Shown: piece by piece, positions 55,019 through 57,188 of the stretch
How the letters are laid out: each line of letters opens with the position of its first letter
Position numbering within the stretch: the stretch's first letter is position 1
NCBI RefSeq assembly: GCF_024223415.1
Contig: NZ_CP100500.1
Strand: one strand, 5' to 3'
DNA: 64,000 bases
From: Escherichia coli
GTDB lineage: Bacteria; Pseudomonadota; Gammaproteobacteria; Enterobacterales; Enterobacteriaceae
Made by a program: the position numbers and the translations under genes
The notes under the pieces: model-generated
The model's input: only the letters and a program-made list of their open reading frames with translations
The model's database searches: none
What the model was told of the DNA's origin: nothing

Positions 55019-55638
55019 CTTGCACCTATCATAAAATTAAAACAAGTTGATAGCAGTCAAATAACAACCAATTAAATACACAATCATAATCAGGATGATG
55101 TGCATTTATATTTTTATACACAAAATTATAGTTTGCAAATTTTAATAAATTTCATTTAAGATTAAATTATTATATGTATATTGTTTTTTATTCTAACGTA
55201 TTTCAAAGTTACATTTTTCAACGCTTACTATACTTTTTATTAACATAAACTCACTACAACGCACCTGAAACCTCTTGCTATATATATGTCAACCGTTTGA
55301 ATTTAAAATAAAAAGAGTATCATTTTTACTTGCATTTCTTATCAAGTCACATTCAACAACAGTAAAAAAACATTATTAGAACCATTCAATTAACAAAAAA
55401 CCAACATCCAGCTTGCTTAATTTTTCTTTATTAAACGATATTGAAAATCAATTGATAAAATACATCTAAACAACCTTTTGGGGCGCAAAAGCATAACATC
55501 AAACAAACAAATAACACACCGAAAAAACTCACAATTAATAACCTATGATATACATACTGTTTATTATGGTTGAATAAGCCACTCGATATCTGGTGCTACG
55601 GAAGTGTCCACACGGTTTAGCAGCACCCGATACTTTTT

Positions 55639-55824
55639 TCAGGCTTCCAGCAACGATCTTTCTTCCTCCGTTGCGATTTCCAGATCTACAGCATCCTGCA
55701 GTGGCGCAATATACTCACTGAATTCCTGGATGTAGAACTGTGTGGTGACGGTCTTCCAGCCATTCGGCTCCTGCTGTATTGAAGCATACCAGGCTATTTC
55801 AATATCGCTATGCTGCGGCAGCAT
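55639..55824 (-). pseudogene. tfaX: tail fiber assembly protein remnant (tfaX-like C-terminal fragment)
   Basis: 61-aa ORF sharing [22 protein letters not shown] with the intact Tfa at 56604..57188 but lacking the rest. Confidence 0.6.
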
Positions 55825-55880
55825 TTAACCCCTTGTAATTCATTGCCATAATTGATTTAATTCACAAATAAAACTATAAC

Positions 55881-56549
55881 ATGGTGAAATTAATGAAAAA
55901 AAACACAGATGATGGGGCTAAAATTTACACACCACTTACCCTAAAGCTTTATGACTGGTGGGTTTTGGGAGTATCAAATCGGCTTGCATGGGGATCTCCT
56001 ACAAAGGAACACCTTCTTCCACACTTTCTGGAACATTTAGGTAACAACCATCTGGATATTGGTGTTGGAACTGGGTTTTACCTTACTCACGTACCTGAGA
56101 GTAGTCTGATATCTTTAATGGATTTGAACGAAGCTAGCCTGAACGCGGCATCTACAAGGGCTGGGGAATCAAAAATTAAACATAAAATTAACCATGATGT
56201 TTTTGAACCTTGTCCCGCGGCGTTACATGGTCAATTTGATTCCATTTCCATGTTTTACCTTCTTCACTGCCTGCCTGGAAATATATCTACAAAAAGCTGT
56301 GTAATACGCAATGCGGCGCAGGCCTTAACTGACGATGGAACTCTATACGGAGCCACAATTCTTGGCGATGGAGTTGTGCACAATAGCTTCGGTCAAAAAC
56401 TGATGCGCATTTACAATCAGAAAGGCATCTTTTCAAACACAAAAGATTCCGAAGAAGGCTTAACACATATACTCTCAGAGCATTTCGAGAATGTTAAAAC
56501 CAAGGTTCAAGGTACTGTAGTAATGTTTTCCGCTTCAGGGAAAAAATAG
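55881..56549 (+). CDS. ybcY: class I SAM-dependent methyltransferase YbcY (apparently intact here)
   Basis: 222-aa ORF with methyltransferase motif I (LDIGVGTGF); embedded between tfa copies in a prophage tail region. Confidence 0.72.
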   Translation: MVKLMKKNTDDGAKIYTPLTLKLYDWWVLGVSNRLAWGSPTKEHLLPHFLEHLGNNHLDIGVGTGFYLTHVPESSLISLMDLNEASLNAASTRAGESKIKHKINHDVFEPCPAALHGQFDSISMFYLLHCLPGNISTKSCVIRNAAQALTDDGTLYGATILGDGVVHNSFGQKLMRIYNQKGIFSNTKDSEEGLTHILSEHFENVKTKVQGTVVMFSASGKK

Positions 56550-56603
56550 CATCCAACCGCAGCACGTTCTTGCTTAAGACGTGCTGCGGCATAATCCCAA
56601 TGA

Positions 56604-57188
56604 TTACTCCCTGACAGGGTTCGTAGGCCACTCAATATCAGGTGCAGTTGATGTATCAACACGGTTCAGCAACACCCGATACTTTTTCCAGGCTTCCAGC
56701 AATGAGGTTTCTTCCTCCGTTGCGATTTCCAGATCTACAGCATCCTGAAGTGGCGCAATATGCTCACTGGCTACCTGCATCAGGCTGTTTTTTGTTTCTT
56801 CCGCCTCCCGGATCCGGAACAGTTTTTCTGCTTCTGCATCTTTCACCCAGGCTGTGCCGTTCCACTTCTGAAACTCCCCTTCCGGCGATAACCAGGTAAC
56901 ATTTTCCGGTAACGGACCGAGTTCAGAAATAAATAACTCGTCCCCTGACGCTACGTCATAAACCGTTTTACCCCGATGGTCTTCAACGAGATGCCACGAT
57001 GCCTCATCACTGTTGAAAACAGCCACAAAGCCAGCAGGAATATCTGGTGGTGCAATATCGGTACTGTTTGCTGGCAGACCTGTATGAGGCGGAATATATG
57101 CGTCACCTTCACCAATAAATTTATTAGTTCCGGCCAGCAGATTATAAATTTTTATGGTCCGTGCTTGTTCACTCATTCTGAATGCCAT
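56604..57188 (-). CDS. phage tail fiber assembly protein (Tfa)
   Basis: 194-aa ORF with typical Tfa sequence; start overlaps the stop of the upstream side tail fiber gene (TAATG). Confidence 0.8.

Follow-up and report, generated by a model that had tools for sequence, protein, structure and literature searches.

A chimeric tfa remnant and an intact tfa bracket the ybcY methyltransferase gene at a probable mosaic joint of an Escherichia coli lambdoid prophage

Results

The ybcY locus analysed here is in all likelihood a mosaic joint at the cargo end of a lambdoid prophage and not a dedicated system. We propose that a two-gene cargo unit, consisting of ybcY and a divergent small gene of the PHROG 3893 family, would have stood directly downstream of the tail-fibre genes. 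A single illegitimate crossover, on a microhomology of 4 nt and in an ancestor of the E. coli copies, would have joined the small gene at about codon 34 to a second tfa gene at about codon 137, leaving a chimeric 'tfaX' beyond ybcY. Since the near side was occupied by the phage's own tfa, ybcY became bracketed by direct repeats of 157 bp with 86% identity. Recombination between these arms would delete ybcY and leave one hybrid tfa, and an exchange with the tfa of other phages would carry the cassette between prophages. The bracketed ybcY is an ordinary, previously annotated scar of phage gene shuffling. Added here are the finding that 'TfaX' is a fusion of two unrelated genes and not a simple tfa remnant, with the founding joint placed within eight bases, and the population evidence that 157 bp at 86% identity suffices for the recurrent loss of a prophage cargo gene.

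Layout of the locus and the repeat pair

The window, which is the whole stretch of 64,000 nucleotides that was analysed, contains the right end of a lambdoid prophage at the DLP12 site with the order stf, tfa, ybcY, tfaX remnant, appY, ompT and envY. The stf gene lies upstream of tfa in the same operon and appY forms the distal flank. The features are as follows.

54269 to 55018, minus strand: appY, AraC-family regulator (Pfam HTH_18; RefSeq annotation of the 99.4% identical XH988 locus)
55564 to 55824, minus strand: 'tfaX', chimeric remnant open reading frame (ATG at 55824; in-frame TGA at 55639-55641, giving 61 aa)
55575 to 55731: left direct-repeat copy, the tfa 3' end within the tfaX remnant (repeat search and alignment)
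55721 to 55728: illegitimate joint where the 5' end of the PHROG 3893 gene meets the tfa 3' fragment (chimera compared with intact tfa and with Citrobacter contig L022)
55738 to 56561, plus strand: core cargo unit, comprising the 5' part of the PHROG 3893 gene (minus), a divergent spacer of 57 nt and ybcY (plus) (blastn against Citrobacter contigs L022 and L024)
55825 to 55880, plus strand: promoter-like region for ybcY (consensus scan; TTAACC-16-(TG)CATAAT at 55825-55852 and TTGATT-17-TATAAC at 55852-55880)
55881 to 56549, plus strand: ybcY, class I SAM-dependent methyltransferase of 222 aa, intact (Pfam Methyltransf_12/23/25/11; PHROG 2132, E 1e-153)
56558 to 56590: strong hairpin in the gap where ybcY and tfa converge (GC-rich stem of 11 bp; -23 kcal/mol; z = -4.7 for either strand)
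56604 to 57188, minus strand: tfa, tail-fibre assembly, 194 aa, intact (Pfam Caudo_TAP, PF02413, E 2.7e-45)
56624 to 56780: right direct-repeat copy, the 3' end of the intact tfa (repeat search and alignment)
57188 to 59944, minus strand: stf, side tail fibre, 918 aa (Pfam phage_tail_N, three Phage_fiber_2, Collar)

The first-pass annotation had described about 130 bp of near-identical tfa 3' ends that bracket ybcY in the same direction, at 55606-55770 and 56650-56790. The repeats are real and run in the same direction, but their identity was overstated: when the two copies were aligned as the annotation had suggested, they matched without gaps over 157 nt with 135 identical positions (86%, blastn E about 1e-48), or 88.5% when the comparison was restricted to 55601-55731. 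The longest identical block was 40 nt (55659-55698 and 56708-56747). The coordinates were roughly right, except that position 55606 corresponds to 56655 and that 55732-55770 lies outside the repeat. Both copies represent the tfa 3' end on the minus strand in the same register. The right copy belongs to the phage's own tfa, which is normally found just upstream of the cargo slot and gives a full-length Caudo_TAP match (residues 72-191 on profile positions 1-130 of 131).

The tfaX remnant is a chimera

The tfaX reading frame would extend to 55564 without its internal TGA. Its defect is a nonsense change from TGG to TGA at 55639-55641, where the stop is codon 62; a frameshift in a T run was ruled out by the translation. 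In strains XH988 and K-12 the equivalent stretch is annotated by RefSeq as a tfa pseudogene with an internal stop. When compared with protein families, tfaX matched both PHROG 2341 and PHROG 3893, and its Caudo_TAP match was limited to residues 31-61 (profile positions 75-105 of 131). It is not tfa over its whole length. The first 34 or so codons (55722-55824) are of the PHROG 3893 family, that of HK225 gp28, and residues 1-36 of gp28 itself matched 55715-55822 (tblastn, E 3e-7). The remainder (55564-55731) is a tfa 3' end that runs from about codon 137 to the end of the gene.

The PHROG 3893 family is found at full length in the phages HK225, mEp390 and HK140 and in Klebsiella, Erwinia and Cronobacter phages. 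Among the listed E. coli phages with ybcY, the match covered only residues 1-36. The core unit at 55738-56561, which is the stretch between the repeats, was 91% identical in Citrobacter freundii contigs (L022 and L024) with no tfa on either side. There, the divergent reading frame encodes a complete PHROG 3893 protein of 79 aa (7e-38), which has only its first 34 or so residues in common with TfaX. The founding joint contains the microhomology CCTG at 55725-55728 and was common to all sampled E. coli copies that retain this stretch. The first-pass annotation had ybcY gained by tfa-to-tfa recombination. As the origin of the left copy this is not supported, since the connection of that copy to the ybcY unit is this illegitimate joint. 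The direction and order of the founding event are inferred.

From the best 120 of 709 matches in a search of 5.8 billion proteins, the 10 longer or divergent sequences were inspected, and none of these 10 was a full-length Tfa with the N-terminus of TfaX. They were the chimera of about 89 aa, its truncations and read-throughs, or lambda-type Tfa proteins that matched the C-terminal part only. For strain ECSD228, RefSeq lists a fragment of DinI in the interval from the remnant to ybcY; this call is likely spurious, since tblastn of two DinI proteins gave no match in the window.

The 89-aa chimera, with a PHROG 3893 N-terminus and the C-terminal 54 residues of Tfa, is intact in many prophages. 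We consider it unlikely that either this chimera is a working protein or YbcY is a lysogenic-conversion enzyme that methylates a host membrane lipid or a small metabolite. If the chimera were functional, it might for example act as a shortened chaperone that disturbs or adjusts the assembly of tail fibres. In either case, arms derived from tfa would be a general route for cargo hopping between lambdoid phages.

Recombination between the repeats probably removes ybcY

The comparison with prophages lacking ybcY, also proposed in the first-pass annotation, showed that the two tfa 3' ends do recombine, and that the documented exchange removes ybcY. Among 5426 complete E. coli genomes, 9 had a single hybrid tfa that directly adjoins the appY flank, and no ybcY. 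Synthetic recombinant queries gave single-piece matches of up to 99.9% with the 1202-nt query and of 100% with the 436-nt junction query. Each ybcY-less genome showed a clean switch from left-type to right-type SNPs, apart from a single stray left-type site in the L014 group. The position of the switch differed (55659-55698, 55624-55638, 55610-55617 and about 55604), corresponding to at least three and probably four distinct crossover points within the repeat.

The sole tfa of L011 and L012 carries the TGA stop of the remnant. This stop codon was present in all bracketed loci examined at the appY site, namely the window, XH988, K-12 and ZH177. Parsimony, the rarity of the ybcY-less variants and the inherited stop codon suggest that they are deletions rather than a pre-insertion state. 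The L014 group, with its divergent tfa allele and the stray left-type SNP, may have arisen by a tail-fibre swap rather than by a simple deletion.

When the cassette was found in other contexts, homology to the window stopped inside the repeats, at 55578, 55595, 55610 or 55625 on the left and at 56701, 56723 or 56769 on the right. Judged by where the homology ends, the cassette was probably transferred between prophages by its tfa arms. Homology that stops right at the tfa 3' end would, however, also be expected from the gene and module border there.

Alternative origins of the bracketed arrangement

A possible, though doubtful, explanation is that ybcY was gained by homologous recombination between tfa genes, where the two tfa arms of a donor cassette paired with the single tfa of a recipient and the ybcY-less form is the state before insertion. 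The repeats do recombine, the 3'-terminal part of the left copy varies with the context in other prophages, and in L003 the left copy is followed by a tfa-type downstream hairpin, as an arm-mediated insertion into a resident tfa would leave. Such an exchange is compatible with the founding by an illegitimate crossover as a route of spread. It leaves the first origin unexplained, since at the illegitimate joint the left copy continues into a gene that is not tfa. In addition, the ybcY-less forms at the appY site have at least three or four different switch points, two of them with the remnant stop, so that at most one could be ancestral.

An in-situ tandem duplication of tfa in one phage, after which the ybcY unit was inserted between the two genes and the distal one decayed, is quite improbable. 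It would account for the shared orientation and register. However, the copies have diverged by 14%, whereas all E. coli ybcY copies are at least 95% identical, and the truncated foreign gene begins exactly at the point, about codon 137, at which the distal copy breaks off. One illegitimate crossover explains this joint, compared to three events (duplication, insertion and deletion) in this scenario.

Still less probable is a remnant of an invertible tail-fibre segment of the Gin/Pin type with alternative tfa genes. Phage Kati and its relatives have a DNA invertase between ybcY and tfa, and the invertase of HK225 adjoins the PHROG 3893 gene. In the window the tfa copies are direct and not inverted, the repeat search found no flanking inverted repeats, no recombinase is encoded among the reading frames from appY to stf, and the 5' part of tfaX is not tfa. 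The segment of 1.76 kb that separates ybcY from tfa in Kati was ruled out as a source of the repeats, as it is a separate invertase-bearing cargo block without tfa sequence.

A transposable element carrying ybcY, with the repeats as its target-site duplication, is hardly conceivable: direct repeats do flank an AT-rich insert, but a target duplication would not be 157 nt long with 86% identity, the reading frame list and the repeat search showed no transposase and no terminal inverted repeats, and the Citrobacter copy of the core has no such repeats.

Integrity and distribution of ybcY

The first-pass annotation had regarded ybcY as intact here and as a pseudogene in K-12, and both statements held. 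In the window, the reading frame of 222 aa has no frameshift. The family consensus start is the second ATG at 55893, giving a protein of 218 aa, and the PHROG 2132 alignment begins at residue 5. The 218-aa query was 98% identical to a cluster of 6589 member sequences, whose representative also has 222 aa. In the K-12 derivative MFDpir, RefSeq flags ybcY as 'frameshifted'. The lesion is a deletion of 2 nt at window positions 55895-55896 in the start region, which abolishes the second ATG and puts translation from the first out of frame. Since the copy of the K-12 laboratory strain is dead, a functional study of ybcY should use an intact allele such as the one described here.

At an identity of at least 95%, ybcY was found in 3837 of the 5426 complete E. 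coli genomes (71%), with up to 4 copies and 4946 ybcY places in total, and the bracketed form was present in at least 1573 genomes. Roughly 460 genomes had a prophage next to appY. Sequenced temperate phages carry it as well. Compared to distant homologues, ybcY has a dN/dS of 0.11-0.23; very close E. coli alleles show few differences, which are mostly non-synonymous. In the literature there was no functional study of ybcY, and the gene was named only in lists and in mentions of its context. YbcY is among the commonest uncharacterised prophage cargo enzymes in E. coli.

Moron features and expression signals

In lambdoid phages, mosaic joints and morons are textbook knowledge; a moron, as the term is used by Hendrix and colleagues, is an extra transcription unit between conserved lambdoid genes. 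The description of ybcY as moron-like in the first-pass annotation agrees with its position on the strand opposite to the tail genes, its promoter-like sites, the hairpin and its absence from some related prophages. The GC content of ybcY is 41% (39-42% across the gene), compared to 47-50% in tfa and up to 63% in stf, as is typical of the composition of a moron. The gene also shows the expected presence and absence, as there is no ybcY downstream of a 96% identical tfa in L009, and the appY-adjacent prophages L011-L014 and L031 are missing it.

The consensus scan found 2 promoter-like sites, compared to 3.2 expected by chance, and both are located in the 57-nt spacer; transcription of ybcY is predicted to start near 55859 or 55887. 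In a genomic SELEX study of the RpoD holoenzyme in K-12, TTGATT-17-TATAAC in the ybcY/tfaX spacer is listed for ybcY with an H-NS mark (PMC3946193). The hairpin at 56558-56590 is probably a terminator for tfa and ybcY, though it has no canonical U tract, and a terminator scan made no call there because its loop and U-tract rules were not satisfied. In phage Kati the hairpin is kept with the core, and homology to the window ends at 56589. With these predicted promoter and terminator functions, the methyltransferase gene ybcY would be transcribed independently, and it is probably silenced by H-NS.

YbcY is a class I methyltransferase

The Methyltransf_12 profile matched YbcY with 38.8 bits (cut-off 30). 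The glycine-rich SAM-binding motif I LDIGVGTG was present, with D55, G57, G59, T60 and G61 invariant in 32 homologues. The AlphaFold2 model showed alternating strands and helices with a pLDDT of 91.7, and a fold search gave 1285 PDB matches of the methyltransferase type at E<=1e-3. YbcY is a class I SAM-dependent methyltransferase with a Rossmann-type fold.

The first-pass annotation had also raised DNA or RNA methylation. This is not favoured, as no DNA-methyltransferase motif occurs in YbcY and its neighbours in sequence and fold act on small molecules and lipids. Neither (D/N/S)PP(Y/F/W) nor PC occurs in the 222 aa, which form a single domain, and no DNA-methyltransferase family was found among the Pfam, NCBIfam and PDB matches. 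The PADLOC, NCBIfam and PDB sequence searches gave no specific function, with only a marginal PADLOC match (E 0.007). YbcY is not a member of the NCBIfam PmtA family (NF045882), where it scored 17 bits against a cut-off of 390, and the fold match to PmtA 8ys9 (TM 0.62-0.66, 15-17% identity) is a resemblance only.

The best fold and sequence neighbours were the bacterial phosphatidylethanolamine N-methyltransferase PmtA (PDB 8ys9), the insect juvenile hormone acid methyltransferase (7ec0) and UbiG (4kdr). Like YbcY, they have about 200-270 residues and a class I fold without extra domains. They are only 13-21% identical to YbcY, with TM values of 0.55-0.67, far under any curated cut-off. These neighbours suggest that the substrate is most likely a small molecule or a lipid, but weakly so, because the fold matches (TM 0.62-0.67, 13-21% identity) are generic for class I methyltransferases.

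Comparison with known systems

The closest known locus is the right end of DLP12 in K-12, with the order tfaD' - ybcY' - tfaX - appY - ompT - envY. It has the same site and gene order, and the K-12 derivative was 99.2% identical to the window over 54001-57042. The internal stop of tfaX, the promoter hexamers of ybcY and the AT-rich spacer between tfaX and appY are shared. In K-12, however, ybcY has the start-region deletion, whereas the allele in the window is intact. The K-12 tfa lacks its 5' part and runs into terminase remnants, whereas here tfa is complete and preceded by stf, lom and J.

The b-region of HK225, with a tail fibre gene, tfa, an opposite-strand dinI, gp28, an invertase and attP, uses the same slot and has the same divergent architecture, where the PHROG 3893 gene is oriented away from the cargo gene and the cargo gene runs towards tfa. 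It differs in its cargo, which is dinI and not ybcY, in its complete gp28 and in the lack of a second tfa fragment.

Like other phage morons, the ybcY unit is present in some phages and absent from others at one set position downstream of the tail fibre genes, is read from the opposite strand, and has a lower GC content, promoter-like sites and a hairpin. Unlike them, it has one border that consists of a truncated neighbouring gene fused to a tfa fragment. Due to this fused border, the ybcY unit is flanked by phage-gene homology and can be lost by homologous recombination.

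The ybcY locus and its prophage setting

Window positions 55000-57400 were 99.4% identical to E. coli strain XH988, where RefSeq annotates matching genes and then lom and J. Positions 54001-57042 were 99.2% identical to the right end of the cryptic DLP12 prophage in the K-12 derivative MFDpir. Judged by these two matches, the ybcY locus lies in a lambdoid prophage, at its cargo end, with the tail-fibre genes on one side and the prophage/chromosome border on the other.

Features of the region 51.8-60 kb
51791-52552, + strand, envY
53066-54019, + strand, ompT
54269-55018, - strand, appY
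55639-55824, - strand, short tfa-like ORF
55852-55880, upstream of ybcY, sigma-70-like site TTGATT-17-TATAAC, a promoter-like sequence
55881-56549, + strand, ybcY
56558-56590, between the convergent ybcY and tfa, GC-rich hairpin with an 11-bp stem (-23 kcal/mol, z -4.7)
56604-57188, - strand, tfa, an intact 194-aa Caudo_TAP gene
57188-59944, - strand, side tail-fibre gene stf, 918 aa

ybcY and the tail genes lie on opposite strands, and ybcY has a GC content of 39-42% (tfa 47-50%, stf up to 63%). The 57-nt spacer upstream of it held two sigma-70-like sites, no more than expected by chance; a genomic SELEX study of the K-12 RpoD holoenzyme lists TTGATT-17-TATAAC for ybcY and marks it for H-NS (PMC3946193). 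The hairpin downstream is without a canonical U tract. A 45-aa ORF (56494-56631, - strand) overlapping the ybcY 3' end, the hairpin and the tfa 3' end is a 'hypothetical protein' in XH988 and a 'nucleocapsid protein' in K-12 derivatives in RefSeq, and looks like an annotation artefact.

Of 5426 complete E. coli genomes, 3837 carry the gene; every copy is ≥95% identical, and a genome may have as many as four. Fifteen phage records also contain it, among them ev243, 2G7b, Kati, Turner and the PhiR series. Other prophages (e.g. locus L009) have a 96% identical tfa but no ybcY downstream of it; unrelated cargo fills the slot. Homologues at 55-70% identity occur widely across Enterobacterales and Pasteurellaceae. 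Those of Enterobacter and Yersinia are chromosomal, those of Testudinibacter and Salmonella lie at the ends of integrated elements, and those of Citrobacter adjoin typical phage cargo genes (dinI).

Several neighbouring features were also recorded. The spacer between appY and 'TfaX' (55019-55560) is extremely AT-rich, with 23-27% GC across 54900-55500; its K-12 counterpart is a 'promoter island' with H-NS binding and divergent transcription (PMC3661553, PMC4469952). In phage Kati, appY-like and ompT genes adjoin the integrase inside the sequenced temperate genome (2186-4138 of locus L005), so the appY-ompT block of the DLP12 region is genuine phage cargo and not flanking chromosome. Within stf, three tandem 132-nt units (58392-58787; 100/76/63% identity) encode a Phage_fiber_2 repeat. 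The XH988 gene has 3399 nt (about 1132 aa) in a locus otherwise 99% identical, so the copy number or module content of stf varies among close relatives.

A direct repeat brackets ybcY

A repeat search returned one long direct repeat, 55575-55731 / 56624-56780, of 157 nt without gaps. The copies match at 135 of 157 positions (86% identity), and in a gapped alignment the similarity collapses on either side. The longest identical run is 40 nt (55659-55698 / 56708-56747), followed by runs of 15, 14 and 13 nt. With a blastn E of about 1e-48 the repeat is not a chance match. The right copy comprises the last 54 codons of the intact Caudo_TAP gene and a few bases upstream, and is the resident tfa, which normally precedes the cargo slot; the left copy lies inside an ORF that matches just the C-terminal part of the family. 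The first-pass annotation had described near-identical tfa 3' ends in the same orientation. Their kinship and orientation held, 'near-identical' was too strong, and its placement was a few bases out of register and took in 55732-55770, which is unrepeated.

Repeat length and divergence, and the lack of a transposase, exclude a transposon with target duplication. An invertible Gin/Pin segment was suggested by relatives such as Kati, which carry an invertase block between ybcY and tfa; it is excluded because the copies are direct and the window locus has neither flanking inverted repeats nor a recombinase. The block itself (1.76 kb; 5711-7467 in Kati; also in Turner, PhiR68_2, mEp460_ev081, Tritos and 2H10) encodes a Pin-like serine invertase and an 88-aa ORF in these inducible coliphages. 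It lies between the ybcY hairpin and tfa, replaces just 36 nt of the window (56590-56625), and is a second, independent cargo insertion at the slot.

'TfaX' is a chimera with a probable single founding joint

The ORF containing the left copy has its own ATG at 55824 and would end at 55564 if it had no stop. Its defect is a TGG-to-TGA nonsense change at 55639-55641; a frameshift was rejected. Other prophages carry an unbroken 89-aa version. This form gave 709 matches among 5.8 billion proteins, and those inspected were the same short protein, its truncations or read-throughs, or ordinary Tfa aligning at the C-terminal part alone; no full-length Tfa containing the first 35 residues was among them.

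A Citrobacter freundii locus with a ybcY homologue showed 91% nucleotide homology to 55738-56561, exactly the inter-repeat stretch, with no tfa sequence on either side. There the ORF divergent from ybcY encodes a complete 79-aa protein that has its first ~34 residues in common with 'TfaX', then differs, and matches the phage family PHROG 3893 end to end (E 7e-38). The family is full length in HK225 (gp28), mEp390 and HK140, and in Klebsiella, Erwinia, Cronobacter, Pantoea and Enterobacter phages; in ybcY-bearing E. coli phages among the matches listed, residues 1-36 alone were aligned. Residues 1-36 of HK225 gp28 also matched 55715-55822 directly (E 3e-7). By these comparisons 'TfaX' joins the 5' part of a PHROG 3893 gene to a tfa 3' end.

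Three-way comparison placed the joint at 55721-55728, on a CCTG microhomology. It is common to every examined E. coli or coliphage copy that retains the stretch, which LF82-type loci have lost. This common joint and the ≥95% identity across all ybcY copies point to one founding illegitimate recombination event. An in-situ tandem duplication of tfa was considered as the source of the two copies, but it requires more events and leaves the foreign 5' end of the chimera unexplained.

Probable loss and possible spread of ybcY through the repeats

The product expected from recombination between the copies was built in silico (55100-55698 joined to 56748-57350) and matched E. coli genomes in a single piece, at up to 99.9%. 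A shorter junction query, unable to bridge a ybcY-containing locus, gave 9 single-piece matches among 5426 genomes; the bracketed form was present next to appY in at least 453 genomes and in any prophage in at least 1573. The first-pass annotation had pointed to prophages lacking ybcY for comparison. All five loci examined ran from appY directly into a single tfa and then stf (a truncated ORF in L012), with ybcY absent.

At the 22 sites that distinguish the copies, each ybcY-less locus was left-type up to a clean switch and right-type beyond it, apart from a lone left-type site in the L014 group. In L011 and L012 the switch fell in the 40-nt identical block, between 55658 and 55699. In L031 it lay between 55623 and 55639 and in L013 between 55609 and 55618; the L014 group, whose tfa allele is also divergent, switched near 55604. 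In L011 and L012 the TGA of the remnant now stands in the sole tfa, flagged 'internal stop' by RefSeq. Such loci could be ancestors that predate the insertion, but the several nested breakpoints, the scarcity of ybcY-less loci and the nonsense codon taken over from the remnant fit better with repeated deletion of ybcY, which homologous recombination between the repeats would bring about.

The repeats may also have served in spread. Phages ev243 and 2G7b, with different tail-fibre modules, were homologous to 55595-56723, ending within both repeats; on the right a stub of 120 nt remains from the tfa 3' end. Across 43 ybcY-bearing genomes chosen as a spread sample, the homology boundaries, query ends aside, all fell in a repeat (left 55578, 55595, 55610, 55625; right 56701, 56723, 56769), except for the LF82-type deletion, which removes the left copy. 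In L003, another ybcY-bearing locus, the left copy ends like a normal tfa, followed by a tfa-type hairpin. Such boundaries, also partly expected at any gene border, are consistent with exchange through tfa-derived arms, by which the cassette would move between prophages. The earlier proposal of a moron gained by recombination between tfa genes may thus describe how individual prophages acquired the cassette; it does not describe the origin of the arrangement, an illegitimate joint between PHROG 3893 and tfa.

Decay of the locus continues. All that LF82 (3903-6885) keeps of the prophage is ybcY, ompT and one fragment each of integrase and tfa; both appY and the left repeat have been lost. ZH177 (3429-3854) has lost the ybcY 5' end, and ECSD228 (5975-9271) has IS3 elements directly after ybcY.

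The ybcY gene and its product

In the window ybcY encodes, without interruption, a class I SAM-dependent methyltransferase of 222 aa, and is intact as first described. Its pseudogene state in K-12 was also found: RefSeq tags the gene 'frameshifted' in a K-12 derivative, where 2 nt are deleted at window positions 55895-55896, within ATGAAAAAAAAC. The second ATG is lost and the first is put out of frame; beyond the deletion the frame is otherwise open. The -10 element of TTGATT-17-TATAAC abuts the first ATG, the alignment to PHROG 2132, the YbcY family, begins at residue 5, and most family members have 218 aa, so the real start is probably the ATG at 55893. Against homologues at 55-70% identity dN/dS was 0.11-0.23, so this is a real, constrained gene family; near-identical E. 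coli alleles differ by few, mostly non-synonymous changes and say little either way.

Pfam returned generic methyltransferase domains alone, NCBIfam sub-threshold matches to CpaM, PmtA and RquA, and PDB sequence and profile searches juvenile hormone acid methyltransferase (JHAMT) and UbiG. The AlphaFold2 model was confident (pLDDT 91.7). Its best fold match was phosphatidylethanolamine N-methyltransferase (8ys9), followed by JHAMT, phosphoethanolamine methyltransferases and natural-product methyltransferases, all at TM 0.55-0.67. A search of YbcY for a DNA-methyltransferase motif or target-recognition domain found none, the PADLOC match was marginal, and no functional study of ybcY was found in the literature. 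Our best guess, weakly inferred from these matches and the model, is that YbcY, expressed from the prophage, methylates small molecules or lipids. An alpha/beta hydrolase gene lies near ybcY in ev243 and 2G7b (L004/L006, 2971-4462) and adjoins the chromosomal homologue in Enterobacter (L015, 7584-8414); this may be coincidence or functional pairing.

Taken together, the first-pass observation is real and its interpretation partly right. The locus is an ordinary one, an already annotated prophage cargo gene beside a mosaic scar. The new details, namely the chimeric 'TfaX', its joint within eight bases and the apparent repeated loss of ybcY through the repeats, are tidy but unsurprising. Most useful in practice, the strain studied here offers an intact allele, which K-12 does not, of a prophage enzyme that is very common but uncharacterised. 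In HK225, gp28 occupies the same slot as the chimera of the window, downstream of tfa, divergent from the cargo gene and before the invertase and attP, whereas the cargo gene there is dinI instead of ybcY.
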